Shown here: piece by piece, positions 1 to 28,766 of the stretch | How positions within the stretch are numbered: position 1 is the stretch's first letter | How the letters are laid out: every line of letters starts with the position of its first letter | Assembly (NCBI GenBank): GCA_963535465.1 | Contig: CAUSWF010000002.1 | Coordinates: 64,606-128,605 of the forward strand | Direction: 5' to 3' | Length of the DNA stretch: 64,000 nt | From: an uncultured Erysipelotrichaceae bacterium | Lineage (GTDB): Bacteria > Bacillota_I > Bacilli_A > RF39 > UBA660 | The notes under the pieces: generated by a model | Told to the model about the DNA's origin: nothing | Database searches by the model: none | What the model saw: the letters and a program-made list of their open reading frames with translations, nothing else | Made by a program: the position numbers and the translations under genes

Positions 1-1943
1 GGAGAACCTACCTGTCTTACTCTTGGTATTTTATTAGGATCTGGATAAGTAGCACGAGGTCTATTTATAAAGTATTTATAAAATCCTCTATCTCTTGCCC
101 ATGTAAGCATAGATACACGAGTTGCTTCTATATTAGCTTGACAATTATAATACATTAACATTTGCATAGCTGTTTTGTAAGCAACTCTAACATCGTCAGG
201 TCTTGCTAAATAGTAGGCTACATACATTGGTTCTTGATTTCCAAAAGCTCTTTTCTTTATAGTAATACAGAATTTAGAAGGAGATTTAGTAGCTTCAGAT
301 GTTTGATCTTGTCCTATATCAATAGAGTCAATTCCAGCTACATATAAATTTTTCATTTCTTTATAAGAAATTTTATTTCCTTCTTCATCTTCTGATTGTA
401 ATAACCATAATGGTTGCTATATTATATGAACTTCGCCTGTATTAGTTGGAATAAACTAAACATCTGTAATATTATCACACATATCCTATTTTCTTCCATT
501 ATTTGTTTTAAATATAAATTTAAATTCTCCATGTTGTACTTTAGGACCTTGCTTATGTAAACGTATCTAAGCTAACTAATCTGCAAGTAAAACCTTATTA
601 AATTTATTATCTCCTTCAAGGGCAAAGGCTTCTTCAGCAGTAAAACAATACTCAGCACAGTATGTTACTAAAGCTTTAGGATCTTTATATCTGTCTCTAT
701 GTTTTTGATAATGTTCTTTAGCTTTTACTTGGTCAACAACTCCTCTAGAATCTACCATATCAGGTAAATCTAAAGCAGAATAAGATGGAATAAAAAATCC
801 AGTAAATACTTGACTTCCATCATCAGTGTAATTATGTCTATAAGGCAATACAAGATAGGATTCTGGATCATAATATATTGTTTTTAATCCATCCAAGGCC
901 GCACCCGAGTCCCCTCCAGTACCACCTGCTATAAGGATACCCATTTTATTACCTCCAACATCTACTAAAGCTTCTCCTTGAATAAAAGATTTTAGTAAAG
1001 TCGGATTAGATCCAGCTTCTTCAAACATAACAAGTTCCGCACGATCACCTCTTACTTTTGAAGGTTTATCAGCAACAATGCCTTCAATTTGAGACTTCCA
1101 TCCATCTTCTACTTTTTGTCCATTTATTATTTTATAAAAAGAGGCTCTTTTAATATCTGCCTTATCAACAACTTGTCTTAATTTAAAAAATCCTCCATCT
1201 GTTTTATCATTTAGGAAAGTTAAAGCTCCCCATACTTTCTCTAGAGTTTTTTCTAATTTACCAGAATCAAAAGCAGTAATCATAGTAATACTATCTCTAT
1301 AACAAGAGTACTCATTAGCACATACAGATGCTAATATTTCCGAAAAACCTACAGCACGGCTTTTCATCATACATATATTTCTTCTTAATAATTTACATAA
1401 TTCTAAATAATGAAAGAACTCATACTAACATACCATAAACCGTGGAAATATATTTTTACGTGCTGTACCAGCTTTTTCTACTCTAGAATTTTTAAGTTGA
1501 TAGTAATTTAAAAAGAAATAATTACATCCTGTAATAGTATAACCATTAACAGTCATTCCATTACGGCATCTTTTATATTCTTGATTCCAGAAATCTCTGT
1601 ATAATTTAGATCCAAATTGATATTGACAATAATGTCCTGTCTTTTCAAAATTATCTCTTGCTTCTGTAAACCATGAAGGATTAAAATCGAGACCGTGTAT
1701 TGCATCTATTGGTTTATATCCACATATTTCGTAGGATTGTGTTCTATCAAAAAAAGATATAGTCTAACTAATTGGGTAATCCCATTCAAAATTAGTTCTG
1801 ACTATATCTTTCTCTATATCCTAAATAAATTCCTTTTCTTCCTTAGCTTCGGCCTGTTTTGTAGCATCTATAATAGACTAAACCTCATCAGGAAGTTTAA
1901 TTTTTCTAGGACGACCTCTTTTACGTTTTTTAATTTCTTCCAT
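1..1943 (-). CDS. terL: terminase large subunit, N-terminal ~647 codons; gene runs off the window at position 1; translated through multiple in-frame TAG codons
   Basis: ATG at 1943-1941 overlaps the upstream TAA (ATGTAATGG). Reading the minus strand gives MEEIKKRKRGRPRKIKLPDEV[TAG]SIIDATKQAEAKEEKEFI[TAG]DIEK...FPRFMVC[TAG]YEFFHYLE...MMKSRAVGFSEILASV... This continues into the listed 264-aa ORF (576..1370), which ends only at a TAG, and beyond it towards position 1. The product has a T4 gp17-like terminase ATPase/nuclease layout. The only stops in frame are TAG. Confidence 0.7.
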
Positions 1944-4663: not shown

Positions 4664-4903
4664 TTACCATTTATTACTAGGACATTTTTCTTCTTTTACA
4701 GAAGTTTTTAAATTGATAAAACATCCACATAGACCACATATTTTTTGATTATCTATTACCTCTAAATATTTACATCTATTACAATACTTTAATCTATTAA
4801 AAGAAAGCTCTTTATTTTTTCCAATAGTATAATTGAATAAACCTTTTATTATATGTTTAATTTTCGTTGGAAAATTCTCCATAATATTTTTTAGCTGCTT
4901 CAT
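4664..4903 (-). CDS. small Cys-rich (putative Zn-binding) protein, paralogue of 5474..5740
   Basis: 79-aa ORF with a CxxC...CGLCGC...KT...CPSNKW pattern shared with the ORF at 5474..5740. Confidence 0.35.
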   Translation of the reverse strand: MKQLKNIMENFPTKIKHIIKGLFNYTIGKNKELSFNRLKYCNRCKYLEVIDNQKICGLCGCFINLKTSVKEEKCPSNKW

Positions 4904-5480
4904 TCCTAGCTTTAACAGCTTCTTCTAATGTATCATAACGTCCAATATATTTAGTTTTATTATTTAATGTAATTTGGGCAGTCCACTTATTTTTATCTTT
5001 TGAAAAATATACACCTTTATGTCCAGATGTATTATTTTTTGGGACAGTACAATTACATAAATTTTGTTGGTTTGTACAAATTCTTAGATTGCATTTTCTA
5101 TTATCTAACCCATTATGATTGATATGATCTATCAATATTTTTGGATCAGTAATATTTAAAATATACCTATGCAATCTTCTAAATTGTTTATTATTAGAAG
5201 TACAATAATATGTATTTCTTTGCAGATCTGATTTATGCCATCTTATAGCTTTTACTTTTTCTATATCTTCTATATCTATTAAAGCTTTTCCACATATTTC
5301 ATTATCCCTATTTATTAAAAATATTTCAGCATGATCGTCAACTATTTCTATATGGTTTGTTTTATCTTTATACGAATATTTAAAAATTTTTCCGTATCTT
5401 CTTATTTGTGTATAATGTTTAGAACATAATCCATTAGCACAAACTTTTTTACCACATCCTTCAATTTTACATATTACCAT
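4857..5480 (-). CDS. HNH homing endonuclease with C-terminal AP2 DNA-binding domain
   Basis: HNH core ...HINHNGLDNRKCNLRI... C-terminal AP2-like segment GVYFSKDKNKWTAQIT...KYIGRYDTLEEAVKARNEAAKKYYGEF. Confidence 0.7.
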   Translation of the reverse strand: MVICKIEGCGKKVCANGLCSKHYTQIRRYGKIFKYSYKDKTNHIEIVDDHAEIFLINRDNEICGKALIDIEDIEKVKAIRWHKSDLQRNTYYCTSNNKQFRRLHRYILNITDPKILIDHINHNGLDNRKCNLRICTNQQNLCNCTVPKNNTSGHKGVYFSKDKNKWTAQITLNNKTKYIGRYDTLEEAVKARNEAAKKYYGEFSNEN

Positions 5481-5740
5481 TGTTCACAAGGGCAAACACT
5501 ATCCCTATTTTTTGTTTTATATTTTAAAACACAGCCGCATCCTTTAAAATAACCATCTTTCTTTTCTAAACTAACATCTTTTGTTTTAGGATTCATATAT
5601 AATTTAGGATTACATATTCCTCCGAACTCATCCTTATATAAAGGACATTTTTTACATATATCTATTCTTATTTTAGATATATCCTTATTAAGACCAAGTA
5701 ATTCATTTACATGACCTTTTATTATATTGCCAACTTCCAT
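5474..5740 (-). CDS. small Cys-rich protein, paralogue of 4664..4903
   Basis: 88 aa with C..C...C.C...KT...CPCEQW and the same Cys spacing as 4664..4903. The two flank the HNH-AP2 gene. Confidence 0.35.
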   Translation of the reverse strand: MEVGNIIKGHVNELLGLNKDISKIRIDICKKCPLYKDEFGGICNPKLYMNPKTKDVSLEKKDGYFKGCGCVLKYKTKNRDSVCPCEQW

Positions 5741-5776: not shown

Positions 5777-7693
5777 TTAATATTCTATCGGTTTAAGTTT
5801 GGCTAATTTTTCTTGTTTAAAAACAGACTTTTTATAAAATTTTAGCATTGATTCTACTTCTTTCTTTAAATAAGGTAAATGATAAACTGTTTGATTATCA
5901 TTATGATCAAAGTGTACTAATATTAAATCTTTAATAGTATATTCTGGATTAATTTTTTGTAACATCCATGCATAAGTAGATAACTGTAAAGCATAATGCC
6001 AGTAATTGCAATCTTCCAAAGTGTTCAATGGATACTTCATTTTAACAGAACTACGAGTTTTAGTATCAAAGCCACTATGTTGTTTGATTTCTTTATTAGT
6101 ATTATGTGTAATTATACATTTATTAGTAACTAAAAAAGTATGTAAAGGGCTGTCTACTTCTAAACATTGTGTTGGAATAGTTTCTGTAATTTCTACTTTA
6201 TTAATATTTCTAAATGAATTTTTATCTATTTTTGGAAATTCAATTTCTTGATTTCTTATTAAAAAAGGATTTAATCCATTAGTTGAGAAACATACATCCC
6301 AAGCAATAAATTCTTTACCATTACATTTTTTTATTACTTCAAAAACAGTAGATTTTATACCTAATGTTCCTAATAATTTTACAGTACAATCTCTTTGCCA
6401 TTCTTGGCCCGTAGACATTACAAAACGTTTTCTTTTAGGATGATAATAACCATCAGTATCCATTAATCCTCTTAATAAGTCTAATCTTTGATTAAATGAA
6501 GCTGTATAATACTCTTCTGGAATATGTTTATTTTTTAAAAGATTCATTTTATTTAATAAAGTTCTTAATCCATAAACAGTCCTCATTTCAGTATTTTCTC
6601 TATCAGGATTATGTTGGGCATTTTCCCCTATATCAAAGCCACGATGTTTTAGTTCATCCCATAATTTAGATTGACTTGCTTGCGTAATAATACCACAATC
6701 TTTTGAACCATCACCTAACCAAACTCCTAATAAATAAGGATCTATTAGTAAATCTTTAGTTGGAGTATTAATAGGTTTTGGATTTAGTATTTTAGGAATT
6801 GTATAAGAATTTCTAGTATAAGTTTGCATATAATTATAAAGTTCCTTTGTAGTTATTACTCCTTTAGTATAAGGTGTTTTTTTACTTTGATTTTTAAATG
6901 ATACTTCCCAACGGTGATCTTCATCAGCTACTATAGTGTCTCCGTTATCAAAAGTTATTTTGAAGCATGGATTATTATGTATAGATGATTTATGCAAAAT
7001 TCGTGTAGGATTACCGTCTCCATCAAAAATAACATCCCCTTCTTTTACAGCTCCTATAGTAGTCCATCCAGAATTTGTTAATATTTCTGTGTCTAAAGGT
7101 AATCCTTTCCAATCCATGACTGTTATTTCATTACCTTGTTTAACTAATAAATCAATCTGTCCTGCAATTCTTAGCATGTTATCAGGAGAAGTACGAGAAA
7201 TTAAGTATTCAGGATATACTCCATTTTCTAAATCTAACGCAGTTCTTCCTTTATCGCATATAAATTTACCTCCTACACCAAATTTCTTTAGTGATACATT
7301 AGCACCCATCTTATACATACTTTGCTCTAGATCTGAATGTATTTTAGTACCTCTTTCACAAGATTCTCTATTAGTTTTATCCCATTCATCTAAAATACCT
7401 TGTTGTGCTTTATTAAAATCAAGTTCAGTAATATCATACGTACTTAAAAGTTCTTTAGGTATTTTGTGTGTATTCAACAAAGATTTTCTTTCTATTTTCC
7501 AAGCATCTGAGGGAATTAACTTTTCTAATGCCTTATATCCAGACCAAAAATCTTTATCAAAGGGTTGAGCAAACTTTTCTATTAAAGTTGTTACTGAAAT
7601 AAATCTATCATTTGTATCTGTATTCCAGTATACATGGTCATTTTCACTGAATGCAATGCTTCCATTCTGTTTGTCTATTTTCATATTATTCAT
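5777..7693 (-). CDS. PD-(D/E)XK exonuclease (lambda-exo / YqaJ-like) interrupted by a LAGLIDADG intein
   Basis: N-extein (aa 1-196) ...SVTTLI...GQIDLLVKQGNEITVMDWK. C-extein (aa 532-638) TNKEIKQHSGFDTKTRSS...YWHYALQLSTYAWML, typical of phage-type exonuclease motif III and the C-terminal Q/Y motif. Between them is a 335-aa Hint + LAGLIDADG insertion. No TAG codons. Confidence 0.65.
   Translation of the reverse strand: MNNMKIDKQNGSIAFSENDHVYWNTDTNDRFISVTTLIEKFAQPFDKDFWSGYKALEKLIPSDAWKIERKSLLNTHKIPKELLSTYDITELDFNKAQQGILDEWDKTNRESCERGTKIHSDLEQSMYKMGANVSLKKFGVGGKFICDKGRTALDLENGVYPEYLISRTSPDNMLRIAGQIDLLVKQGNEITVMDWKGLPLDTEILTNSGWTTIGAVKEGDVIFDGDGNPTRILHKSSIHNNPCFKITFDNGDTIVADEDHRWEVSFKNQSKKTPYTKGVITTKELYNYMQTYTRNSYTIPKILNPKPINTPTKDLLIDPYLLGVWLGDGSKDCGIITQASQSKLWDELKHRGFDIGENAQHNPDRENTEMRTVYGLRTLLNKMNLLKNKHIPEEYYTASFNQRLDLLRGLMDTDGYYHPKRKRFVMSTGQEWQRDCTVKLLGTLGIKSTVFEVIKKCNGKEFIAWDVCFSTNGLNPFLIRNQEIEFPKIDKNSFRNINKVEITETIPTQCLEVDSPLHTFLVTNKCIITHNTNKEIKQHSGFDTKTRSSVKMKYPLNTLEDCNYWHYALQLSTYAWMLQKINPEYTIKDLILVHFDHNDNQTVYHLPYLKKEVESMLKFYKKSVFKQEKLAKLKPIEY
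6101..7105 (-). mobile_element. intein (Hint domain with two LAGLIDADG motifs) inserted directly after the catalytic Lys of the exonuclease; residue 1 is Gly rather than Cys/Ser
   Basis: Block A GLPLDTEILT (canonical CLxxDTxIxT with G in place of C). Block B DTIVADEDH. LAGLIDADG motifs LLGVWLGDGS and LLRGLMDTDGYY. C-terminal VTNKCIITHN followed by +1 Thr. Confidence 0.6.
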
Positions 7694-8379
7694 TTACATA
7701 TTTTTTTATATTATTATAATCTAGTATTGCTGCTAACTTAGAAATTTCTGGACCTATAACTACTGGATAATAAGGCATCTTATACTCTTTCTTCTTTTTA
7801 TAAAGTATTATTATTAATCCAATAGGACTATTACTTCCTGCTATAGGATAAAAAGCAGCAGCTCTAGCATTACTTGCTAAAAGTTTATTGTAAAATTTTG
7901 GCATAGAATATTTAATAGAATCTATATTATTTACTCTTAATAGAGAGTAATTATTTATTTTCTATAACTCATCTATATAATAAACATATTCAAGTTCATG
8001 CCATTCTCTTTTTGTTTCTTGCGAATCTATGCCTCTAGTCTTCTCAGTAAGGCAATTTAAATACTAGTAACTAAAACCTTGTAAACTTCTAGTTGAATTA
8101 TGATAACTTAAAAGTATTACATTTGTAGCATCAGGATCTTTATCAAGTATTGCCTAAACACTTCTATCTATTTCTGGAGCCATTTTAAGAGTATACTTTT
8201 CAGCTTCCTACTTATCATTCTCCATAGATTCAGCCCATTGTTTAATGCTGTTTTTGTTTTCAGAAATTATATAATTTCCGAGGCACCATCCTAATAATCC
8301 AATTATAATTACAGTTTTTGTTTGTGTGCCCAAACTATCTAAAAATTCCCAAATCTTTTTTATTAATTTTAATTTCATT
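7686..8379 (-). CDS. membrane-anchored late protein (~230 aa) with N-terminal TM helix, 4 in-frame TAG
   Basis: ATG at 8379-8377: MKLKLIKKIWEFLDSLGTQTKTVIIIGLLGWCLGNYII... It continues through TAG codons (8213, 8156, 8069, 7969) into the listed 72-aa ORF 7686..7904 and ends at TAA. Confidence 0.45.
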
Positions 8380-8560: not shown

Positions 8561-9330
8561 ATGGCAGTAAATAATAGTATTTACAATAACAAAAATCCTA
8601 ATATTAAATATAATATTTAGAATTTATTTACTACGGCTAAAATTGCTTCTTTATTAAAGAAAGGAGGTAATGTACATAGAACAGATATATTTCCAGGGGT
8701 TATAGATACTAATGCTAATTTTGATAATATGAGTCCTAGGAAAAAAAGAAAAAAGATTAAAAAACATCAAGATGGAGGAGAAATAGAAGTGGTTGAATAT
8801 AATCCTGTAGTATTATCTTTAAAAAAATTAGATTATCCAGAACTAAATAATATTAATACTAAAACTTTAGATATATCTGGATTATCTTTTGATAAATTTA
8901 CTCCACCTTCTATAAATAATATGCGCGTATAGGAAAATTATCCTATAAATCCAAATATTAGTTTAGAAGATTTATTAAAACAAGAAGGAGTAAATGCAAA
9001 AGTTTCTTCTGGTTATAGAAAGGGAGCAATATCAAAAAATGGACATAAAAGTAATCATAGTCATTTAAATTCTGATGGAACTCCAGGAGCTTATGATATA
9101 GTTCCTAATGATGGTAACTTTGAAAATCTTAGAAAGGAGATATATGGTAATCCACGTATAGTTGCATGGCTTAAAGCTAAAGGTTGGGGTATTTTAGAAG
9201 AAACTACTCCTAATATTATGAGAAAAACTGGAGCTACAGGTAAACATTGGCATTTTGGTCCTGATACTGCAGCCTTAGATATGTCTAGATAGAATGGAAT
9301 TAATTATACTAAATTAGGAGGTTTATTATG
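8561..9330 (+). CDS. M15-family (VanY/L-Ala-D-Glu-type) zinc peptidase, likely virion-associated peptidoglycan peptidase; 3 in-frame TAG
   Basis: The ATG at 8561 is in frame with the listed ORF 8729..8932. The frame continues past TAG at 8618, 8930 and 9284 to TGA at 9328. Motifs: SGYR, HSHLNSDGTPGAYD (H...D zinc ligands) and terminal GKHWHFGP. Confidence 0.65.
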
Positions 9331-10470
9331 ATAGAAACTACAAAATATGATAATATAGATCAGTAGTTTGAATATCCAGATTTACCAAGTATTAATAATT
9401 CTAATAATACTATAATAGCAGATGAGGCTACTGAAAATTATCTTAGGGCTGTTCAAAATGAATATGCTTTAAAGGCTTAGAGAGATAAAGAATTATGGGA
9501 ACAACAATAGAACGTTAAAAATAATTAGCCTAATTAGTAGTATTCATTTACAGATAATAATATACCTCAAATAAGTAGTTCTAATAAACAAGGATCTTAG
9601 AAAGTAAAAGAAATACTTGATAATATGATACATGATCCTACTAAAAAAACTATATTGTTAAAAATTGCAGAAAAAGAATCTAATTTTAAAATAGATGCTA
9701 AAAATGCTAAAAGTTCTGCTAGCGGTTTATTTGGATTTTTAAATTCAACTAAACAAAAATATGGTTATGGTAATACTGCTGAATAGTAGATTTAGGGAGC
9801 ATCTAAATTATATGATGCTCATGCTACTTAGTTATAGTAGTATATAAATAAATATGGAACTAGAGGTAAATCAATAACTTAGTTAATGTATGGTATGTGG
9901 TTTAGACCTACTTCTTTACTTCATTATTTACAAACAGGTCAAGATGATTATAAAGATGCACAAGGAACTAGTTTAGAAAAAATATTTGCAAAAATGGCTA
10001 AAAATGGAGGAATATTAAAAGCATAGGATGGAATAATAATTCCAAAAGCTCCTAATACATTTAGATAGTATGGAATAGATCCTAATAAGTTTGTTAATAT
10101 GTGGAACGGACTTGTTAATAAAGGAATATCTCCACAAGTAGCATTTGATGCTACATGGCAAGCTAATAAAGAAGTTCCTAAAGGATATTATTCATATGGA
10201 AAAAAGAAACCTAATCTCAATAGTTGGGTAGAAGCTGCTTCAGATAGTTTAACCACAGGAGCATATAAAAAAGCAAAGAATGCTTAGAATTTTGATTAGT
10301 ATAGATAGGCTACTTTTAAATATAATAAAAATCCAGAATATACTAATTGGTTAAAAACTAATAGATAGGATGCTGTTAATTTTATAAACAGATATAGACA
10401 ACAAAACGGAATAGTAGGTAAACCTATAGCTTAGCTTATCCCAGTAACTTAGATAATTAATAACGTATGA
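9328..10470 (+). CDS. lytic transglycosylase (SLT-domain) protein, Q-rich, ~20 in-frame TAG
   Basis: ATG overlaps the previous TGA (ATGATAG). The SLT catalytic motif is LLKIAEKESNFKIDAKNAKSSASGLFGFLNSTKQKYGY. The frame is closed only by TGA at 10468-10470. Many TAGs sit within Q runs (WEQQ[*]NVKNN[*]PN[*][*]YSF). Confidence 0.6.
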
Positions 10471-10748
10471 TAAAGAATTTTATAAAAAGTATGTTACTAG
10501 CTACTCAAGGATCTATAAGTTCTAAAAGAGTTTGTGGAGTTCTTGGTTGGTTAGTATGTTTAGGTATTTGTATTTACTGTACAGTTGGTTAGATACAAGC
10601 TCCTATACTAGCAGACAGTGTTCTTATAGGTAGCGCAGCATTAATGGGCGTAGATAGTGTTACAGGTATATGGAAAAATAAAAGAGATATAAATATTATA
10701 AAAGAAAATGAAACTAATGTAGAACAAAATAATAGTTTAGTATAATAA
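10467..10748 (+). CDS. holin-like small membrane protein (2 TM), 1 in-frame TAG
   Basis: ATGA overlap start. 93 aa: MIKNFIKSMLLATQGSISSKRVCGVLGWLVCLGICIYCTVG[Q]IQAPILADSVLIGSAALMGVDSVTGIWKNKRD... It lies between the peptidoglycan-hydrolase genes. Confidence 0.45.
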
Positions 10749-10750
10749 AT

Positions 10751-13183
10751 ATGACTCAAATAAAATTTGATAAATCTAAAAAATATTATGATAGTAAATT
10801 AAATAAATACTATGGTTAGGGTATTTGGTTTAAGGATACTAATGATGATGGTAAATATAATGAAGGAGAATCTTTAATTCCTATGGGAAATAGAATTAAA
10901 AATTCTAATAATTCTTATGTACAATTAAATTCTGATGGAAGTAGAACTTTATTATATTCTAAAGGTAAATTTACTAATACTAATATTTCAAATGTAGATA
11001 AATAGGCTATATCTAAAGGATTAATATATGGACGCAATGCTTCTTTACAAAATAATAAATATGTAAGATCTAATAATGGCATAAGTAATTGGGATATAGA
11101 TACAGTTAGACAAAAAAATAAAGATGGAAGTTATACAGATATTAATAATAATACATCTTTTATATATAATAAAAATAAATATATTGGAACAGCTGGCAGT
11201 AAAAATGTAATAGATTTATATCATAACGTAGTAAGTAATGATGGAGGTAAAACTTGGTCTAGAAATTCTACAACTCAAAAATCTGTAAGTCCTTTTATTA
11301 CAAGACGCTATGGTACATAGCCTTTAGGTTAGTATTTAAATCCAGATACTAATATTAAAACAAATTATGCTGAAGTTAATTTTGGAGATACTAATGGTTA
11401 GAATCAATATTTAAAAAATAATTATTGGGTATATGATGATGGTAATGGTAATGTTCAAACTATCGGATTTAGGTATAAAGATGGTAAAGATTATGCGTTT
11501 TTATCAGACGATAATAATTTTTTAAATGATAATGTTTCTGGTATTTTAAAATCTAAATAGAGTATAGGTTCATCTAAACTTAAATCTTATAGTGCTGGTT
11601 TTACTCCAGGTATGGAAAAATGGAGAGGAAAAGGTGGATGGTATACAAATGTAGGATAGGATCTCCCCGATATAGTATACGGTGCTAAAGATGGTTATTT
11701 ATATAATAAACAAGGATAGCAAATAGGATTTAATGCAAATGGTACTTATTATTTAAAAAATAATATTATTGCTTCTGAAGAAAAACCTACATTTAAGAAT
11801 ACTTTAGTAAATGGGTGGTCTGGCTTAGTACAAGACTTTAGTAATTTAAGTTCTAGATTTGATCCTTCTAATAATTAGGGTTTCCAAAATAGATTTACTG
11901 GAATATTTGGAGATTTAGGTAGAGGAATACAGCATGCTGCATAGGGTACTGTAGGGGCATTAGCTACTGCTATTATTCCAGATAGTTTGAATGAAACCAT
12001 AGGTAAGTATGGTTAGATTACCGATATAGGAAAAGATTTAAGAAGTATAACTAGTTTATTTGGTAATGGGAAATTTGTTACACCTTGGGATTAGGATAAC
12101 CATGGCCTTGTTGATTACGCAGATATAATTGGCAACAAACAAGGTCTTCAAGATATAAACGATGCATTAAATGGAGCAACTGTTTTAATCGGAACTAAAG
12201 GATTAGGCACAACAAAAGAAGTTTTAAAAGGAACACTGCAGGGAACAAAAGCTATGAGGTTTACTGAAGCTGCTCTTAAAGGAGCAAAAAATACTTCTAA
12301 AAATATATATTCAAATGGAGCATATTATACAGGAAAAGCAGGATTACGTCCAAGTAATATTACTCCTATGATTAATGCTGTTAAACAAGGTTTTAAAAAT
12401 GCACGTACTTATTATGAAGAATCTGCTCCAGTAGTAACAAAACCAACAATAGTTGAGTCTAAACCAGTAACAGCAGGTACAAAATAGTATATACAACCTA
12501 CAATAAAAAAACTTAATCCAAATAAAGGTGCTGAAGTAGTATATAATATGAAATTTAATCCTGTTTAGGAAGCTTAGAATATAATGGCTAAACCTAAATT
12601 TATATTTAAAGAAAATTCTATAGTACATGTTCCTAAAGGATTACCTGTAAAAGTAGAATAGCCTGTACTAACATAGCAACCTGTTGTTAAACCGTCTGTA
12701 CAAAAAATTCCTAAAACTGCACCTAAACAATTAACTTTAGAGTTTGTGGAAGATAAACCTAAATATGTACAACCTATATTAAAACAGCTTAATGATGCTA
12801 AAAAAGCTGAAATTGCAAGTAAAATAGTTCCTATAGATTATGCAAATGTAGCACATACTATAATGTAGTCTAAACCTACTATATAGCTTCCAGAATTTAG
12901 ATTTTCTTCTAAATTTAATCCTGTTTCTGAAGCTAAAGCTAGAACAGTTAGTAATACTTCAAATGTAGGAAATATTCCTAATAAAAATATTAAGTATGTA
13001 GAAAGTCAACCTACAGTTAATAATTCTAAAATACTACAGTGGAAGCAAGCTAAAGAAATTAAAGCAGTACCTAAAACAATGAAACCTAAAAGTAAAAGTA
13101 AAATATTGAAAAAAGTAAATAAAAAATATTTAGGTGGAATTTTAAATAATAAATTTAATAATTGGATAAATGCAAATAACTAA
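10751..13183 (+). CDS. large virion protein (~810 aa; tail fibre / receptor-binding candidate), ~23 in-frame TAG
   Basis: One frame is continuous from ATG 10751 to TAA 13181-13183 once TAG is read through, and it contains the listed ORF 12254..12487. Asn/Gly/Tyr-rich beta-like composition. Internal repeats KFNPV(Q/S)EA near the C-terminus. No recognisable catalytic motif. Confidence 0.5.
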
Positions 13184-13697
13184 TTTTATAAAATATATAT
13201 AGAGTTGGGAAGGAGGTTATGCTAATATACCTCAAGATAGTGGAGGTCCTACTAATAAAGGAATTACCCTAACTACTTTCCGATCTATATTTGGGCAAAA
13301 CAAAACAATAGATGATTTAAAGAAAATGACAGATGAGCAATGGTGGAAAGTATTTAAAACTAAATTTTGGGATAAATACAAAGCAGATAATATTAAAGAT
13401 GAATGGTTAAGATATTTATTAGTAGACTGGTTATGGTGTTCTGGTCAATGGGCTATTACTAAAGTTTAGAAATTACTGGGATTAAATCCAGATGGAATTG
13501 TCGGAGACAGAACTATAACAGCTATTAATAGTAAAAATCCTAAACAATTATTTGATACTATTTGGAAGATGAGAGAAAAATTCCTTCAAGATATTTCTAA
13601 AGGTAAGAATAGTATATTTTTAAAAGGATGGCTTAGACGTCTTAATGGGCTTAAATATGGTTATTTAGTAACTAGTAATAATAAAATATTAAAATGA
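13170..13697 (+). CDS. endolysin: GH108-family lysozyme N-domain plus PG_binding_3 C-domain; 2 in-frame TAG
   Basis: MQITNFIKYI[Q]SWEGGYANIPQDSGGPTNKGITLTTF (GH108 'EGGY...D.GG.T..GIT' motif) ...WAITKV[Q]KLLGLNPDGIVGDRTITAIN (PG_binding_3 'LQxxLG..DG..G..T'). Ends at TGA 13695-13697. Confidence 0.7.
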
Positions 13698-13924
13698 GTT
13701 TTATAACAAATTTTAAAGAATCCAATAGGTATAAACACTTTTGGTGTGCTATACCTATTGGATTAATTTTTACTATACTTTGTGTTATTGGGTGTGCAGG
13801 AGGTATGGAATTTAAAGATAAACAATATAGTAATTATTGGGATTGGAAAGATTTTGGATTTACTGTATTAGGAGGATTTGTCGGACAGATATTATAGATT
13901 ATATTAATATTAATTTTATTATAA
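13694..13924 (+). CDS. small 2-TM membrane protein (holin/antiholin-like), 1 in-frame TAG
   Basis: MSFITNFKESNRYKHFWCAIPIGLIFTILCVIGCAGG...FGFTVLGGFVGQIL[Q]IILILILL*. The listed ORF 13694..13897 stops at a TAG; the true stop is TAA at 13922-13924. Confidence 0.4.
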
Positions 13925-15273
13925 TGCCAAAACCTTTTGATTTAGATTTACATAAAAGTTATAATGTAAATAATAAAAGTAAAAATTATAAGTCCTTTAC
14001 TGGGGCTAATGGAGAATTATGGTATACTGATAGACCTTTAATTACTTATAATAATAGTAAATTAGCTTATGTAACTAACGGAAGAAATGCTAGATGGGTT
14101 ACTGTTGGAAATGAATTTAATACTTAGCCTTAGATGTTATCTAGAGAACAAGCTGTAAAACGAGATCTTAATAAACCTAGAATACAAGCAGCTAATGATT
14201 TAACTTAGGGTTTAACTGATCTTATTACAGGAGGAATGGCTGGATCATTAAGAGAAGGGGCTTAGAATCTTACTAAAGGTAATTATATTAAGGGTATTTC
14301 ATAGTTAGCTACACCTGCCATGTTTGGATCTGGAATTGCAGGAAATATAGCAAGAGCAGGTGTCGGATCTTATAATTTATTAAATGAAGATAGAGTTAGA
14401 AAAACATATAAATATATTAATAATAAGGAATATGGGAATGCTGCTGTTTCTGGATTAGGAGATATTTTAAATGGAGGTATGGCTATACATGGTGGTACTT
14501 AGTTATTTAAAAACTACAGAATAGTTGAACCTAAATTATTAAGTGCTAATTTAAATAATAAAAATATGCCATATTACTCTTAGTTTGAATAGTAGGAAGC
14601 ATAGCAACATATGATATCTGATATAAAAAGAGGTTATTAGAATTTTAAAGATTGGATGACGAATCCTCATTATTTAGAATCTACTTTAGACAACATGGAA
14701 GAAGCTAAAAGAATGGGTTTAAAATATACACCTACTTATGATAAACCTCATTATAAAGCACTAATGTAGAACGGTATTAAAATTAATTTTAAGAAATAGA
14801 TGCAGGGTAATGGTGCTACTAGTTAGTTTGGTGCATAGGCCGGACATCCTGCTGAAGTTGATTTAAATTTAGGATCACCACAATCATTTTTTAATACTGT
14901 AAGACATGAATCTGGGCATGCTGCTTATCATGGTAATGGGTTAACTCCAGATGAACTTAAATATTTAAGATTTAAAACTCATTAGGCTTTTATAGATAAG
15001 GCTGAGGCTGGTCCTTATGATTTTCATTAGTAGACTGGTGAAGCTGCTATGAACGGTAGAGATTTAGGACATGATTTAGGAATATCTGTAGGACAATCTT
15101 ATCCAGGATATTAGAAAGCTTTAGAAACATTAAATTCAGGACTAGGCAAATCTACAAAAGATGGAATGATTAAATTATTTAAAACAGATGAACAATCTAT
15201 GCCTTATGTATGGAAATTACTTAATGGTACTTTACTAGGAGGAGCTTTAGTAACTAAATTTAATAATAAATGA
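13924..15273 (+). CDS. virion/lysis-associated protein (~449 aa) with HExxH zinc-metalloprotease-like motif; ~20 in-frame TAG
   Basis: ATG 13924 (taATG overlap). The frame contains the listed ORF 14320..14502 and ends at TGA 15271-15273. Motif ...SFFNTVRHESGHAAYHGNG... (HExxH). Confidence 0.45.
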
Positions 15274-15313: not shown

Positions 15314-15782
15314 AAATTTAAAATTATGAAAAACTTTATTAATTTCTTTTTCTAGATCTTCTTTTATTTTTCTATTAATTCTATCAGCAATTTCTTGCTA
15401 CCTAATACATATTTTCCAAGAAGATTTTTCATTTTCTATCTGGATCTATTGATAGTTTATTTAACTCATCTTGATAATCTAAAAACCAAGATTCGTCTAA
15501 ACATTTATTATCTGTACATAACTTTCTAAATGTATATAAATTCTTAATTAAAAACTTAGAAAGTTTCTTAAGTATTTTAATTTTTAATTTCATCCAATAA
15601 TTTTTGTTTCCAAAATAAATATTCTTTTGAATTTTCTAGTTTATGTAATTTAAAGAATTTCTTTATTCTTTTTATATTCTTTATACTATGATATAGTTTA
15701 TTCTTATAACATTCTGAAATTTCATCATTAGATACATTAAAATACTTACAAAGTTTAATCATTAAGTGGTATACTAACATAG

Positions 15783-15870
15783 TTGCCTCGCTAGGATTCG
15801 AACCCAGATTGACGCCCTCAGAAGGCTACAGATTTAGAGTCTGCCGTAATAACCATTATACTACAAGGCA
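15783..15870 (-). tRNA. amber suppressor tRNA, anticodon CUA, class II (long variable arm, 87 nt); anticodon arm matches bacterial tRNA-Tyr
   Basis: Reverse complement: tgccttg-ta-gta/taatggttat/tac-g-gcaga/CT[CTA]AA/tctgt-long variable arm-ctggg/ttcgaat/cctag-cgaggca-A73. The anticodon stem-loop GCAGA CUCUAAA UCUG(U) differs from the E. coli tRNA-Tyr arm (GCAGA CUGUAAA UCUGC) only at position 34 and the closing pair. Confidence 0.65.
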
Positions 15871-15876
15871 TTAAAG

Positions 15877-15948
15877 TTATCCCACTAGGATTCGAACCCA
15901 GACTAAGAGGGTTAGAGCCTCCTGTGCTAGCCGTTACACCATAGGACA
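15877..15948 (-). tRNA. amber suppressor tRNA, anticodon CUA, class I (72 nt), tRNA-Gln-derived
   Basis: Reverse complement: tgtccta-tg-gtgt/aacggcta/gcac-a-ggagg/CT[CTA]AC/cctct-tagt-ctggg/ttcgaat/cctag-tgggata-A73. U1:A72, D-arm, 4-nt variable loop and T-arm closely parallel the phage tRNA-Gln(UUG) at 31788-31858. Confidence 0.65.
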
Positions 15949-25013: not shown

Positions 25014-25086
25014 GGGGCAATAGCAAAGCTGGTCAATGCGTTGGACTGAAAATCCAAAGATAATGGTTCGATTCCATTTTGTCCCA
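25014..25086 (+). tRNA. tRNA-Phe (anticodon GAA)
   Basis: ggggcaa-ta-gca/D-loop/tgc-g-ttgga/CT[GAA]AA/tccaa-agata-aatgg/ttcgatt/ccatt-ttgtccc-A. Confidence 0.7.
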
Positions 25087-25094
25087 CTACAAAT

Positions 25095-25166
25095 CGCGAG
25101 GTAGAGCAGTGGTAGCTTATTAGGCTCATAACCTAATGGTCGCAGGTTCGATTCCTGCCTTCGCAA
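25095..25166 (+). tRNA. tRNA-Met (anticodon CAU), initiator-like C1xA72 mismatch
   Basis: cgcgagg-ta-gagc/agtggta/gctt-a-ttagg/CT[CAT]AA/cctaa-tggtc-gcagg/ttcgatt/cctgc-cttcgca-A. Strong similarity to bacterial tRNA-fMet. Confidence 0.65.
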
Positions 25167-25172
25167 CATATT

Positions 25173-25259
25173 GGAGAGTTGGCTGAGTGGCTTAAAGCGC
25201 TGGTCTTGAAAACCAGAGGGCGGTAAAACGCTCCAAGAGTTCGAATCTCTTACTCTCCT
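25173..25259 (+). tRNA. tRNA-Ser (anticodon UGA), class II
   Basis: ggagagt...ctggt/CT[TGA]AA/accag-long variable arm-aagag/ttcgaat/ctctt-actctcc. Confidence 0.65.
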
Positions 25260-25267
25260 CTTATATT

Positions 25268-25353
25268 GGAGATTTAAGCCTAATTGGTAAGGCAGCAGTT
25301 TGCTAAACTGCCAGTAATCGTAGTAATATGATGTATAGGTCCTATAATCTCCA
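25268..25353 (+). tRNA. tRNA-Ser(GCU)-like with non-canonical T-arm (possibly degenerate)
   Basis: Good acceptor stem (ggagatt/aatctcc), D-arm and anticodon arm gcagt/TT[GCT]AA/actgc. The region where the T-arm should be is a short hairpin (tatagg-t-cctata) without a TTC loop. Confidence 0.35.
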
Positions 25354-25375
25354 CAATTAATTTAAATAAAAGATT

Positions 25376-25585
25376 ATGAAAAAATTTAATAATCATTTGT
25401 TACCAAATGGTTTATGGTATTTAGTACAAGCATACCTTATTAGTACAGAATGGCAATGGTATAAGGATAATAATATTAAATATGAATCTGCTACAAAATT
25501 AACTGCTGGGCAATTATCTAATTTAGTTGCTAATGCTATTAGTTGGAGTGTAAAACGTATTCAATATAATACTGAAAATACTTAA
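25376..25585 (+). CDS. small hypothetical protein, member of a tRNA-adjacent paralogue pair (with 27967..28194)
   Basis: MKKFNNHLLPNGLWYLVQAYLISTEWQWYKDNN... versus MKKFKGHVLPDDLFYMIVSYSEKTKWQWFKDNN... Each lies immediately 3' of a tRNA gene. Confidence 0.45.
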   Translation: MKKFNNHLLPNGLWYLVQAYLISTEWQWYKDNNIKYESATKLTAGQLSNLVANAISWSVKRIQYNTENT

Positions 25586-25635
25586 AAGATAAATAAAAAT
25601 CTACAGGCAATAATAATTTAATTAAAGCCTATTAT

Positions 25636-25706
25636 GCTCTTGTCGTCTAATGGTAGGACATGAGACTTTCTATCGTAGAATTACGGTTCGAATCCGTGCT
25701 TGAGTA
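25636..25706 (+). tRNA. tRNA-Glu(UUC)-like, degenerate (two U.U mismatches in acceptor stem, A.G mismatch in anticodon stem, U37): possible pseudo-tRNA
   Basis: D-arm gtct/aatggta/ggac and T-arm tacgg/ttcgaat/ccgtg are canonical and resemble the intact tRNA-Glu at 30128. The acceptor (gctcttg/cttgagt) and anticodon stems are imperfect. Confidence 0.35.
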
Positions 25707-25942
25707 CAATTATTAGTTCTTACATAATAATTACGTCATTGTATTGTCGGGTATAAAAATACAACGGTAATAGATATTCCGTAAATATATCTAAGTACAA
25801 GCAGTAGTACTAGTTAGTAATTCATAAGTAAGACATTGATTACTAAAACTGAAAACAGTTATATCTATTATAATTGCAAATATAGTATTTATAATTACAG
25901 TAAGTTTGTTATACTCTAATGTGGGTTTTGAACTTACTAAAT

Positions 25943-26010
25943 TGGAGTACCAAGGCTGGAGAATCTCCCTTGCATGGAGATTGTGGGGAGTTCGATTCTC
26001 TTTACCTCCA
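25943..26010 (+). tRNA. tRNA-like element (canonical T-arm; anticodon-arm hairpin reading UGC/Ala-like); 5' half could not be folded into a standard acceptor stem
   Basis: atctcc/CT[TGC]AT/ggagat perfect anticodon-arm hairpin, then ttgtg, gggag/ttcgatt/ctctt, tacctcc-A. No upstream partner for the acceptor 3' strand was found by eye. Confidence 0.3.
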
Positions 26011-26359
26011 CATTTCTAACATGATATCGGGACAAAGCGTTGTCCAATCTAGCAGAATATAAATACATCATTTTTAAACAAGTAGTAAGTTATTGTGAAA
26101 TAATTTACTATATTTGCTTAGGTAGTCAACGACAGCAGGCTTGCCCCGAAAGGTTCATAGGTCCTATCCTAAGCGCATTTACTAATTAAACATTTTATAA
26201 ACATTAAAAAAGAAATATATTAAACCAGAAATCAAAACAATTAAAATAGATAATGAACCTTGTATGAATAATACAAGCCAACATAAAGAAGGATCTTCAT
26301 GGGTATGTCCATGTGATAAAGACTCTGTTACTATAGAAAATTTAATAAATAAATAAATA

Positions 26360-27232
26360 ATGGAAAATAAAGTATTTTTTGGAGAAAGTGGTTTAACTTC
26401 TACAAGTGCAAATCATGTAGCAAACCTTGCTAAAGAGTTCATTAGTTCAAATGAAAACTATCTTAATAGCATTTCTTTCATTAATTGTAAAGTAGGACTT
26501 ATCGGTAGTGATAAAGATCAAACTTACAGTTTAGGTGTACAAAATTTAAATGATATTGAAGTTATATTAGCAGATATTGCTAAATGTAAAGCATTGATTG
26601 CTTGGTTACGTGAGGCTATTAAAGCTAAGAATGCTTTAATTTCAGATATTAATAATTTTAATATTTCAAGTTATTGTCAACTTAAAGGACTACCTAATCC
26701 TGAACGTCCTCAACTTCCAGATTATTTAACAGCTGAAGAATATTATGATTCTCTTCCTATTAAAGAAAGAAATGAATATTATTCTTTGGAAGCAGAAGCA
26801 GCAACTTTAGGTCAGTTTATTCATCCTGGAGGTAATCTTAATCAGCAACGTAGTTTGTTATCTGAGAAATTAATGCACCCAATTAAATCTGAGGGAGAAG
26901 GAAGGGATACCATATTGTATAAGTATAGTCCTTCTATTAGTTTAGAAGAAGTGGATAGTACTTTCTTTAAGCTGCAGGCTAAACATAGAGAAATTCAAGC
27001 CAGATTAAATGGGATGAAGCATCTTTGTGAAATAGCTATGCAGCAAGACCGATTGCAAAAGGATAATACTTATAAGGCAGCTGATAATACATATTTTACA
27101 AAAATGCATGAACTTGCAAACGAAGTTAATATCTATAAAGACGAAGAACTTACAAGAATTCAGAATCTTAAGATTGTTATTCCAAATTCTCTAGAAAGTA
27201 TTTATAAAAAGATACAATCATTGGGTAAATAA
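26360..27232 (+). CDS. hypothetical protein (290 aa)
   Basis: Intact ORF, TAA stop, no TAG. Confidence 0.5.
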   Translation: MENKVFFGESGLTSTSANHVANLAKEFISSNENYLNSISFINCKVGLIGSDKDQTYSLGVQNLNDIEVILADIAKCKALIAWLREAIKAKNALISDINNFNISSYCQLKGLPNPERPQLPDYLTAEEYYDSLPIKERNEYYSLEAEAATLGQFIHPGGNLNQQRSLLSEKLMHPIKSEGEGRDTILYKYSPSISLEEVDSTFFKLQAKHREIQARLNGMKHLCEIAMQQDRLQKDNTYKAADNTYFTKMHELANEVNIYKDEELTRIQNLKIVIPNSLESIYKKIQSLGK

Positions 27233-27859
27233 GAACTTAGAGGCTTGACCTCTTAATCTTATTGAATATGTTTAATAGATGTCATTTATCTATGAATAAA
27301 ATTATTGCTAATTTAGTAATAATATTTTAAGTTTGTAACTTAAAATTGAATGTATACTCTTTCAAAACTTATATTTAAAAGTAATCTGAACAATTACTGC
27401 TTTTGTTTTCGAAGAAAGAGTATGTTCTTGATATTGATTTTATTTTAGTTTTAGTTGGCATTTATTAAACATAACTCAATATTTTAAATATGTTTTTAAA
27501 TTTATTAATTATTATAATATTAGTATTAATTTTTGAATTATTACTTAATATTATTAAAATAATAGCTAAAATTTATCTTGATGAAATACGTAATTTGTAA
27601 TTATAATAATTATTCAGTAATTGAAATAATCGAATCTGATAACTTTATAAAAGTTGAAGAAAGATTAAAACAATTAAATAAAGGTTATAATAACGAATTA
27701 ATTATAATATCCTTACATAGGTATAATAAACTTATTAAAGGATTAGTATCAAAAATAAATAGAATTAAAAATATGTTAATGTAAAAATATGTGGAGAGGA
27801 GCAATGTTCTACTGTGGAGATGATAATGCATTCCTAGAATTATTCAACCCTTTCCCTAT

Positions 27860-27932
27860 GCTCATATAGCTCAGTTGGTAGAGCACTGGTCTCCAAAACC
27901 AGGTGTCCCCGGTTCGATTCCTACTGTGAGTG
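27860..27932 (+). tRNA. tRNA-Trp (anticodon CCA) with weak T-stem
   Basis: gctcata-ta-gctc/agttggta/gagc-a-ctggt/CT[CCA]AA/accag-gtgt-cccgg/ttcgatt/cctac-tgtgagt-G. Body nearly identical to bacterial tRNA-Trp. The T-stem has only 2 Watson-Crick pairs. Confidence 0.55.
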
Positions 27933-27966
27933 CATTTTAATAAATTAATTAATTAATTAAATAATT

Positions 27967-28194
27967 ATGAAAAAGTTTAAAGGACACGTATTACCAGATG
28001 ATTTATTTTATATGATTGTATCATATAGTGAAAAAACTAAATGGCAATGGTTTAAAGATAATAATTTAACTATTCCTGAAGATTTTGGTTTTTCATTAGT
28101 TAAGAAAATATCTAAAGAACAATTGAATGATTTAATTAATTATGCTGTTAAATATAATATAGATAACATTAAATATGAAACTGAAGACTATTAA
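27967..28194 (+). CDS. small hypothetical protein, paralogue of 25376..25585
   Basis: See 25376..25585; immediately downstream of tRNA-Trp. Confidence 0.45.
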   Translation: MKKFKGHVLPDDLFYMIVSYSEKTKWQWFKDNNLTIPEDFGFSLVKKISKEQLNDLINYAVKYNIDNIKYETEDY

Positions 28195-28766
28195 AAAATA
28201 TTTATTTAACGAAATTAATTTACTTACAGATAAAAAATGTAAGCCAGCACAAAATAGTAATTTATTGTTAATGTTCAGTGAACATAAAAAATATAGAAAA
28301 CCGTTCAACGGTTTAAATTTTTATAGAAAAAGATGTAATTTTTATGATACATCTGAAGCTTGTGAACTAATGGCTGAACATTTTTGGGAATTTGAAAAAT
28401 ATGAATGGTTTCAATTAATGATATTAATTAATGAATTACCCCTTGAATATTCTGGAGTTCCATTTAAATTAAAAGCTTATGCCAACGCATATTGTGATTG
28501 GTTTAAAAGAAATTTACCTGAATTATGGGAAGATTATAAAGAAGCACATAGAGAATAAAAATATGAAAATAAAATATACAGAATATTTAGATGTCCCAGG
28601 ATTATTTGAAAACAATAATACCATAGATGATATTATAGCAGACCTTCAAAATTTGAAAGAAGCACATCCTGATACATCACATATAGATTTTATTTATGAT
28701 GATGGTTATGACTATAAATCTTCATTTGTCCAAATTAATTATTATATATAATAAAAATTTTTAATT

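Follow-up and report, generated by a model that had tools for sequence, protein, structure and literature searches.

How an intein could splice when its first residue is a glycine is the question raised by one open reading frame in the 64,000-nucleotide stretch of DNA analysed here (the window). This ORF, located on the minus strand at 5777..7693, encodes 638 amino acids, ends in TAA and has no internal stop. An initial reading made from the sequence alone had described within it a 335-aa LAGLIDADG-type intein at 6101-7105 whose first residue is Gly, and had concluded that the intein must either splice by a non-canonical route or be dead for splicing. The coordinates, the GGA codon for Gly1, block B, both LAGLIDADG motifs and block G are all as that sequence-only reading described them. 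Translation of the insert (6101..7105, minus strand, as for all features below) gives GLPLDTEILT...CIITHN, with ...VMDWK immediately upstream and TNKEIK immediately downstream. The surrounding DNA is that of a phage, being AT-rich (23-33% GC over 4-10 kb), TAG-recoded and related to phage records from human faeces. A megablast search of positions 1-12000 of the window against annotated phages returned no match.

The interrupted protein is a RecB/Cas4-like PD-(D/E)XK exonuclease, a group already known for class 3 inteins between the Lys and Thr of (D/E)xK-T. The N-extein (aa 1-196; 7106..7693) ends in ...GQIDLLVKQGNEITVMDWK and contains the motif II Asp181 and the motif III Asp194-x-Lys196, the C-extein (107 aa and the TAA stop; 5777..6100) begins TNKEIKQH and contains the Q-x-x-x-Y motif (LQLSTY), and the insertion point falls between Lys196 and the Thr of the (D/E)xK-T motif. 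In-silico splicing raised the score against Pfam PDDEXK_1 from 18.6 bits for the precursor, which is below the cutoff of 22, to 27.5 bits, and the spliced extein matched phrog_298 'exonuclease' at 7e-25. The lambda-exo/YqaJ-type host first proposed was not supported, with neither the precursor nor the spliced extein matching the YqaJ family model at E <= 1. Cas4 proper was also considered and rejected, as the extein scores 18.3 bits against TIGR00372 (cutoff 65) and, in place of the four-Cys Fe-S cluster of Cas4, has just three Cys, which are scattered and do not cluster at the C terminus. In an alignment of 127 sequences of close homologues, position -3 is Asp in 106 sequences and position -1 is Lys in all 109 that have a residue there. 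The nuclease motif columns are at least 90% conserved in an alignment of 63 sequences (A1) made up almost wholly of intein-bearing proteins, a pattern of conservation that we count as support for the host gene probably remaining functional while carrying the intein.

Alleles that lack the intein define its boundaries. In related phages, the intein-free allele P0121 is 303 aa, which is exactly the predicted spliced length, and is 96% identical. The junction reads ...VMDWK-TNREIK in P0121 and at loci L007-L010, and ...IVDYK-TNKSI at L002. Because intein-free homologues read straight through MDWK-TN, the junctions are exact, and the proposed insertion directly after the catalytic Lys with Thr at +1 is supported. 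At the DNA level, the sequences on either side of the intein-free site match the window at 90-94% identity, with the 1005-nt insert missing cleanly. Likewise, none of the 120 closest extein homologues, which are 66-96% identical and ~300 aa long, contains the intein, which argues against the 335-aa region belonging natively to the nuclease family. Among close extein homologues, P0122 (437 aa) alone has an odd length; it was considered as a possible further intein and rejected, as it contains an internal duplication that is probably an assembly artefact. Base composition gave no signal of a foreign origin for the intein relative to its flanks (GC 0.23-0.31 and 0.22-0.33, respectively). Homologues of the insert are abundant and the matches lie well past chance level, with metagenomic matches at E values down to 3e-130 and 10,810 representative proteins matching at E <= 1e-10.

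Block A of the intein (GLPLDTEILTNSG; 7067..7105) starts with the non-nucleophilic Gly1. The sequence-only reading implied that a glycine here is rare; instead it is the rule at this site. Among the 127 aligned close homologues, Gly1 is found in 105 of the 108 that have a residue at that position, and of 136 cluster representatives tabulated at 50% identity, 110 have it. In a tabulation of 78 class 3-like inteins from viral contigs, 28 begin with Gly and all four codons are used (GGA 11, GGT 9, GGG 5, GGC 3). The cultured Streptomyces phage Frankenweenie has Gly1 too. We count this distribution as support for Gly1 being, as judged from sequence, under selection. Furthermore, the identical protein is recorded on at least 5 contigs, two of them shown from separate runs. 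The sequence-only reading had named two findings that would overturn it, a sequencing error at codon 1 and an insert native to the nuclease family. Given these recurrences in more than 100 homologues, and the clean absence of the region from intein-free relatives, an error at codon 1 (whether from sequencing or from assembly) and a native domain are both scarcely credible.

What, then, could take the place of a nucleophile at residue 1? In a HMMER search against PDB sequences, the top three matches were class 3 inteins (E about 1e-16), with the insert aligning to Msm DnaBi1 (6bs8, E = 4e-16) and to MchDnaB1 (6rix, 6riy). Gly1 aligns with Ala1 of 6bs8 and 6rix, and His64, Trp66, Cys314 and Asn335 align with His65, Trp67, Cys118 and Asn139 of Msm DnaBi1; mutational work has shown that class 3 splicing depends on each of these four residues (PMC5222942). 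Block B (GDTIVADEDHRWEV; 6902..6943) provides Asp61 (B:7), His64 (B:10) and, two residues beyond this in His64-Arg-Trp66, the Trp of the WCT triplet (B:12), which is conserved in 115 of the 115 aligned sequences that cover this position. Block F (PTQCLEVDSPLHTFLV; 6128..6175) contains Cys314 (F:4), the counterpart of the class 3 initiating nucleophile by alignment and by published mutagenesis (PMC5222942), and a Cys is present in 121 of 121 aligned sequences with a residue at that position. Block G (KCIITHN followed by T; 6098..6121) contains Thr333 (G:5), His334 and Asn335, conserved in 120, 121 and 120 of 121 sequences, respectively, and ends at the nucleophile Thr+1, one of the residues (Ser or Thr, rarely Cys) expected at +1 of a class 3 intein and the same Thr that is conserved in the DxK-T motif of intein-free alleles. 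Taken together, D61, H64, W66, C314, T333, H334, N335 and T+1 show little or no variation in the 127-sequence alignment and none in A1. The WCT motif, proposed at the outset as a check, is thus complete (W66, C314, T333) and unvarying in relatives. Class 3 inteins have been reported to be monophyletic. The insert groups with known members of the class both through its top PDB matches and through its homology to Catera gp206, and with Gly1 it lacks the Cys, Ser or Thr that a class 1 intein has at position 1.

In the Pfam comparison suggested at the outset, no Hint or intein-splicing model matched, LAGLIDADG_3 scored 22.2 bits, just under its cutoff of 22.5, and the only other matches in Pfam and NCBIfam scans of the intein were weak ones to intein-bearing RNR and Tes models. 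Therefore, the class assignment draws on the PDB search, the alignments and the predicted fold. The AF2 model of the intein (pLDDT 97.3, pTM 0.94) matches 6bs8 with a target-normalised TM of 0.83-0.86 and PI-SceI with a query-normalised TM of 0.76. On this evidence, the insert is very probably a class 3 intein that is competent to splice and has a LAGLIDADG homing endonuclease nested within it, placed in motif III, (D/E)xK-T, of the exonuclease. A glycine at position 1 is normal for an intein of this type because class 3 inteins use the internal Cys as nucleophile, and in all likelihood Gly is, along with Ala and Pro, one of the tolerated non-nucleophilic first residues of the class and the one preferred at this site.

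A residue 1 without a nucleophile is equally a property of class 2 inteins, and class 3-signature inteins could in principle have followed a class 2 or a class 3 route until Cys F:4 was mutated (PMC5222942). However, the class 2 hallmarks of Ala1, Cys+1, Ser G:6, Asp F:4 and KlbA orthology (PMC4031507) are all absent, and the insert has Gly1, Thr+1, His G:6 and Cys F:4 in a PD-(D/E)XK nuclease host. In addition, the hydroxyl of Thr is poorly suited, as a nucleophile, to attacking an amide directly, and all WCT inteins tested need Cys F:4. A class 2-like route is consequently highly improbable.

The other outcome foreseen by the sequence-only reading was that Gly1 blocks the first step, so that the precursor persists and the exonuclease is inactive or serves in another role. 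Published biochemistry gives this some weight. An engineered A1G change in the class 3 AceL NrdHF intein abolished trans-splicing, supposedly because glycine relaxes a strained bond (PMC7891396), and the only Gly1 intein that has been tested, Arsp-FB24 Arth_1007, was inactive and is a pseudogene (PMC3196547). Our literature search found no characterised Gly1 class 3 intein with demonstrated splicing. Decay does occur in this lineage, since the copy in a 99.2% identical relative (L013) has lost 32 nt within the endonuclease domain, which shifts the frame. Nevertheless, Arsp-FB24 also lacks His B:10 and Cys F:4 (PMC3196547), both of which are present here, and every class 3 catalytic residue of the insert is in place and invariant. 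Moreover, Gly1 is kept across 110 clusters (<= 50% identity) through all four Gly codons, which is unlike the behaviour of a disabling lesion, the nuclease motifs of the extein are still conserved in intein-bearing genes, and the ORF is intact across 638 codons. Of the two outcomes first envisaged, the non-canonical route therefore stands and, given the full set of WCT residues, is favoured as a class 3 route, while a dead or decaying intein is quite improbable.

If splicing follows class 3, the finding that A1G abolishes it in AceL NrdHF means that a clade keeping Gly1 would need something to compensate, perhaps through the -1 Lys, Asp61 or Cys47. It is a tentative idea, and rather an unlikely one, that class 3 inteins with a natural Gly1 make up a large sub-lineage, strictly conserved and linked to the nuclease (D/E)xK-T site, in which the N-terminal scissile bond is activated differently from that of Ala1 or Pro1 inteins. 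Alternatively to compensation, splicing in the Gly1 clade could be conditional. Cys47 (6965..6967), which is invariant in the clade (63 of 63 A1 sequences) and is shared by Catera, ScoobyDoobyDoo, Frankenweenie and Synechococcus phage B23, corresponds in the alignment to Cys48 of Msm DnaBi1. The latter forms a disulfide with Cys118 under H2O2, and all seven substitutions tried at Cys48 abolished splicing (PMC6195587). By analogy, a Cys47-Cys314 disulfide might form under oxidising conditions and gate maturation of the exonuclease by redox state. However, because Cys48 is needed for splicing as such, the invariance of Cys47 may reflect a structural or catalytic role only, and the related records come from human faecal samples, so that oxidative episodes may be rare for the phage. 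We regard redox gating as doubtful.

For the favoured class 3 route, the sequence features are those observed here and the chemistry is that of characterised class 3 inteins. In the newly made 638-aa precursor, the intein would divide the nuclease active site between Lys196 and Thr. Cys314, rather than residue 1, would attack the Lys196-Gly1 peptide bond, activated by His64 and Trp66. This would yield the block F branched intermediate, in which a thioester links the N-extein to Cys314, and then, by transfer of the N-extein to the Thr+1 hydroxyl, the block G branched intermediate. Cyclisation of Asn335, aided by His334 and Thr333, would free the intein, and an O-to-N acyl shift would yield the 303-aa exonuclease with its DWK-T motif restored.

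The freed intein may then act on DNA. Its homing-endonuclease domain occupies approximately intein aa 100-295 (6221..6808) and contains two LAGLIDADG motifs, motif 1 (block C, DPYLLGVWLGDGSK; 6701..6742) reading LLGVWLGD132G and motif 2 (block E, RLDLLRGLMDTDGYY; 6443..6487) reading LLRGLMDTD218G. The acidic residues Asp132 and Asp218 are at least 90% conserved, and the predicted fold is PI-SceI-like, matching PI-SceI and I-DmoI. Judged by these features, the domain looks intact. As a LAGLIDADG endonuclease, the intein would cut intein-free alleles between ...GATTGGAAA and ACNAAT..., and repair of the break would copy the intein into the cut allele. We infer this activity and target site with indirect support from the presence/absence polymorphism and from mosaic flanks. 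The empty site at L008 reads ...ATGGATTGGAAA followed across the junction by ACAAATCGAGAA..., the window-type variant after the junction is ACTAATAAA, and three substitutions adjoin the junction. The mosaic tracts are centred on the insertion site and show recombination there. Also in favour of mobility, the 120 closest extein homologues lack the intein, and the inteins are 46-55% identical while their exteins are mostly 27-44% identical, with two at 59-63%.

Class 3 inteins at this exact site of phage RecB/Cas4-like exonucleases are already documented, so in kind the present example adds little. The inteins of Catera and of the cluster C1 mycobacteriophage RecB/Cas4-like exonucleases share the RecB motif III (D/E)xK-T site (PMC5050341; bioRxiv 10.1101/2025.01.02.630785), and have in common with the insert the WCT triplet, THN followed by T, a nested LAGLIDADG endonuclease, a similar size and a phage host. 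In Catera gp206 the intein, read as SLACSTPILT...PTHN, lies at the same site between ELK and TQN and is 32% identical to the insert by tblastn over the intein and 26 N-extein residues; efficient class 3 splicing has been reported for it (PMC3196547, citing Tori and Perler 2011). The intein begins with Ser in Catera, with Ala in ScoobyDoobyDoo and with Gly in the window. At the end of the Catera extein lies a Cys-rich tail (...CCMPQSKEMDACPARYQC) that we take for a Cas4 Fe-S cluster, whereas the window extein has no such cluster, and Catera-type hosts are actinophages whereas the window belongs to an AT-rich, TAG-recoded phage. Closer in its first residue is gp79 of Frankenweenie ('Cas4 exonuclease and intron'), in which GLALDTPLPT...VVTHN is inserted at the same site between LVDWK and TT, with WCT present and 38.5% tblastn identity to the window, although its extein has diverged further and this cultured actinophage infects a high-GC host. 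The 2025 survey mentions the class 3 lineage of Frankenweenie, and we noticed no comment on Gly1 in it (bioRxiv 10.1101/2025.01.02.630785).

Comparison with better-characterised inteins places the insert similarly. The DnaB mini-inteins of Msm (DnaBi1, 6bs8) and M. chimaera (DnaB1, 6rix and 6riy) match it residue for residue at H, W, C and THN and resemble its fold (target-normalised TM 0.81-0.86), but lack an endonuclease domain, have Ala1 and Ser+1, and reside in the P-loop of the DnaB helicase. The class 3 prototype, the Bethlehem DnaB intein, which we compared by its published description, is likewise a phage intein, of 341 aa, but has Pro1 and a helicase host (PMC2807308). PI-SceI, TliVMA and PI-PfuI share the two-domain architecture of HINT and LAGLIDADG (query-normalised TM up to 0.76), but are class 1 inteins with Cys1 and Asp F:4 and show only ~15% sequence identity to the insert.

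For annotation, the 638-aa ORF is an intein-interrupted exonuclease with a predicted mature product of 303 aa, and Pfam sees the nuclease only once the intein is removed in silico. The occurrence of near-identical phages that have or lack the intein, together with the mosaic tracts, provides a clean illustration of homing in nature, among phages akin to those recorded from human faeces. At this site Gly predominates as the first residue, and it accounts for about one third of the class 3-like inteins in the viral-contig tabulation, yet the published biochemistry covers Ala1, Pro1 and Ser1, with A1G lethal in one class 3 intein. Given that contrast between dominance in nature and loss of splicing on engineering, the clade offers a natural test of the idea that class 3 splicing depends on a strained scissile bond.

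The exonuclease precursor is encoded by an ORF of 638 amino acids at 5777..7693 (minus strand), and within it the segment GLPLDTEILT...CIITHN, 335 amino acids by translation (6101..7105, minus strand), lies between ...NEITVMDWK and TNKEIKQH. The first codon of the segment is GGA, block B is GDTIVADEDHRWEV, the two LAGLIDADG motifs are DPYLLGVWLGDGSK and RLDLLRGLMDTDGYY, block F is PTQCLEVDSPLHTFLV and block G is KCIITHN/T, all placed as in the sequence-only reading. Searching with the in-silico spliced extein (303 amino acids) recovered 3436 homologues, the top one being a 303-amino acid protein (P0121, representing 159 member sequences) with 96% identity over 100% of the query. The distribution of the intein is sporadic, as the insert is missing from all of the best 120 of these homologues (66-96% identity), and this rules out the possibility that the 335-residue region is a native domain of the family. 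The sole length outlier among the 120 is P0122, an intein-free protein of 437 amino acids on an ENA contig, in which residues 274-407 copy residues 140-273; this tandem duplication of ~134 amino acids is probably an assembly artefact. At the DNA level, four loci carrying P0121 (L007-L010) match the window at 90-94% identity on either side of the insertion and lack precisely 1005 nt. Over the 45 nt leading up to the site, the window and the P0121 loci do not differ, and the empty site reads ...ATGGATTGGAAA/ACAAATCGA..., that is ...MDWK/TNR. Likewise, MT835470, an unannotated phage record from human faeces, has ...IVDYK-TNKSI at the junction and no intein. The predicted 335-residue intein is therefore real, its borders are right and the extein junction is exact. 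Furthermore, the Pfam PDDEXK_1 score (cutoff 22) rises from a sub-threshold 18.6 bits for the precursor to 27.5 bits for the spliced protein, indicating that in-silico splicing restores the nuclease domain.

In family-model scans of the host protein, the spliced extein hit PDDEXK_1 and phrog_298 'exonuclease' (7e-25) and, less strongly, models of AddA and Cas4; no match to YqaJ was returned. The earlier description of this protein as a lambda-exo/YqaJ enzyme interrupted after the active-site lysine is therefore wrong in detail as to the YqaJ label and correct as to the lysine: the intein sits directly behind Lys196 of D194-W-K196 and in front of a conserved threonine. The site corresponds to RecB motif III, which an actinophage survey gives as 'EFKT' (bioRxiv 10.1101/2025.01.02.630785). 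Cas4 proper was rejected, because the TIGR00372 score is 18.3 bits (cutoff 65) and the four-cysteine cluster is absent.

Of all solved structures, those matching the intein best are three of class 3 mini-inteins, Msm DnaBi1 6bs8 (E = 4e-16) and MchDnaB1 6rix and 6riy. In the HMMER alignment, His64, Trp66, Cys314 and Asn335 pair with 6bs8 residues 65, 67, 118 and 139, which are His B:10, Trp B:12, Cys F:4 and Asn G:7, each required for class 3 splicing as demonstrated by mutation (PMC5222942). The remaining class 3 positions, G:5 and +1, are occupied by Thr333 and by a threonine. Tori et al. defined class 3 by a non-nucleophilic residue 1 that co-varies with a Trp-Cys-Thr triplet, together with Thr or Ser at +1 (PMC2807308). 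Judged by its sequence, the intein has every one of these features, including the full WCT triplet (Trp66, Cys314, Thr333) that the sequence-only reading proposed looking for. Class 2, characterized by Ala1, Cys+1, Ser G:6 and Asp F:4 (PMC4031507), was rejected because none of the four is present. Membership of class 3 resolves the anomaly of a glycine at position 1; the class, the insertion site and the host-protein family were all known before.

Glycine at position 1 is widespread. In an alignment of 127 sequences, 105 have G at position 1, 2 have A and 1 has S, and D61, H64, W66, C314, T333, H334, N335 and T+1 are nearly invariant. When 1.84 billion cluster representatives were searched exhaustively, 10,810 relatives emerged at E <= 1e-10; among the 150 listed, 136 had a match spanning both intein ends, with Gly in 110, Ala in 19, Pro in 5, and Cys and Asp in 1 each. 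The Gly1 representatives are nucleases of ~600 amino acids with the arrangement DxK/G...THN/TN, and Ala1 and Pro1 occur mostly in longer proteins. At 78 tabulated IMG/VR loci, residue 1 is Ala (35), Gly (28), Pro (13), Met (1) or Cys (1), the glycine codons are GGA (11), GGT (9), GGG (5) and GGC (3), and some P-loop GK/ sites also carry Gly1 inteins. In addition, the identical 638-amino acid protein is found on at least 5 contigs, two of which are shown to come from separate sequencing runs. A sequencing error at codon 1 is therefore excluded by this recurrence in contigs and homologues and by the use of four glycine codons. Sequence conservation indicates that Gly1 is a selected state, common and not exceptional in class 3 inteins.

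No Gly1 class 3 intein with demonstrated splicing was found in the literature searched. In the class 3 AceL NrdHF intein, A1G destroyed trans-splicing, which the authors attributed to lost scissile-bond strain (PMC7891396). The Arsp-FB24 intein has Gly1 and is dead, but His B:10 and Cys F:4 are missing from it as well (PMC3196547). Given the deep conservation of Gly1, the catalytic residues and the nuclease motifs of the intein-bearing genes, the window intein is very probably splicing-competent. By analogy with its class, Cys314 would attack the Lys196-Gly1 amide, itself activated by His64 and Trp66, the N-extein would be handed from the thioester to Thr+1, Asn335 would cyclize, and an O-to-N shift would give the 303-amino acid nuclease with DWK-T back in place. 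Cys47 (6965..6967, minus strand), which lies in none of the named splicing blocks, is conserved in 63/63 aligned inteins and pairs with Msm DnaBi1 Cys48, a residue essential for splicing that forms a disulfide with the catalytic cysteine under oxidative stress and was labelled 'non-conserved' by the authors (PMC6195587). By this analogy, redox-conditional splicing through Cys47 is possible.

An AlphaFold2 model built from a 63-sequence alignment has a pLDDT of 97.3 and a pTM of 0.94. Foldseek matched the whole intein to PI-SceI (E = 3e-19, query-normalised TM 0.76), TliVMA and PI-PfuI, the splicing domain to 6bs8 and 6rix (target-normalised TM 0.81-0.86) and the endonuclease domain to I-DmoI. 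The endonuclease domain looks functional because D132 and D218, the acidic residues ending the LAGLIDADG helices, are at least 90% conserved. The free intein would then cleave empty alleles, and repair would copy the intein in.

Besides the sporadic distribution, a sign of mobility is that inteins of this kind share 46-55% identity, whereas their exteins mostly share 27-44% (two reach 59-63%). The same intein is present in contig L013, which shares 99.2% identity with the window. Across nt 1-400 and 800-912 of the spliced gene, the window matches L013 (98-100%) and both differ from empty L008 (82-94%), whereas across nt 400-800, spanning the junction at nt 588, the window matches L008 (94-100%) and L013 differs (56-96%). 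From about -190 to +210 nt (about 5900..6100 and 7106..7300) the window flanks are of the intein-free allele type, and the rest of the gene is of the L013 type. In the first 9 nt past the junction, the window has ACTAATAAA, L013 has ACTAATAAG and all four empty alleles have ACAAATCGA; three substitutions here set intein-bearing alleles apart from empty ones. Such a junction-centred mosaic would be expected from gene conversion at a homing site. The L013 gene (3902..5786, ERZ28634295 scaffold_680) has lost 3 + 29 nt from its LAGLIDADG domain, around window 6553..6600, which shifts the frame, and the gene is called as 377 + 261 amino acids; this is either decay of the endonuclease or of the gene, or an assembly error.

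A free-standing HNH-AP2 homing-endonuclease gene (4857..5480, minus strand; phrog_99, 3e-46) sits between paralogous small Cys-rich ORFs at 4664..4903 and 5474..5740 (phrog_13558/DUF6171). It is found in the related loci L008, L010 and L012 and is replaced by a gene of 203-208 amino acids in L007, L009 and L013, a second mobile-element polymorphism ~300 nt from the intein-bearing gene. The phage appears to read TAG as sense in some genes, an observation drawn from 2..1943 (minus), 7686..8378 (minus) and 9313..15273 (plus). All 9 in-frame stops of the terminase large-subunit frame are TAG, and reading TAG as sense gives ORFs of 385-816 amino acids where the standard code gives none of at least 300. 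Neighbouring tRNAs of 89 nt and 73 nt at 15782..15870 and 15876..15948 (minus) each have a CUA anticodon. The neighbouring gene of 230 amino acids, directly upstream of the exonuclease, contains 4 in-frame stops, all stop types counted together, and the intein-bearing ORF has zero TAG and a TAA terminator. ARAGORN predicted a tmRNA at 35955..36274 (plus; tag peptide AKVIPMNSFAVRIAA) as well as nine other tRNA genes within 25014..37922 (plus). A second exonuclease-like gene lies at 53649..55193 (plus; phrog_284, 1e-16). The gene at 56732..58837 (plus; phrog_487, 1.6e-180) resembles the anaerobic ribonucleotide reductase NrdD, which fits an anaerobic host.

A tblastn search of annotated phages matched 788 records, 299 of them mycobacteriophages. 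Catera gp206, cited in PMC3196547 as an efficiently splicing class 3 intein, reads ...VELK/SLACSTPILT...DAEHLWQV...VRCITV...PTHN/TQN and has both the insertion site and the WCT triplet in common with the window intein. For cluster C1 phages, Kelley et al. reported 40 inteins of this type in RecB/Cas4-like exonucleases (PMC5050341), and a 2025 survey put the number in Cas4 exonucleases at 138 (bioRxiv 10.1101/2025.01.02.630785). Unlike the window intein, residue 1 is Ser in Catera gp206 and Ala in both ScoobyDoobyDoo gp195 and the Synechococcus phage B23 terminase intein, whereas Streptomyces phage Frankenweenie gp79 shares Gly1 (LVDWK/GLALDT...VVTHN/TT). The same kind of intein is therefore already documented at this exact insertion site, and the window intein adds another member.
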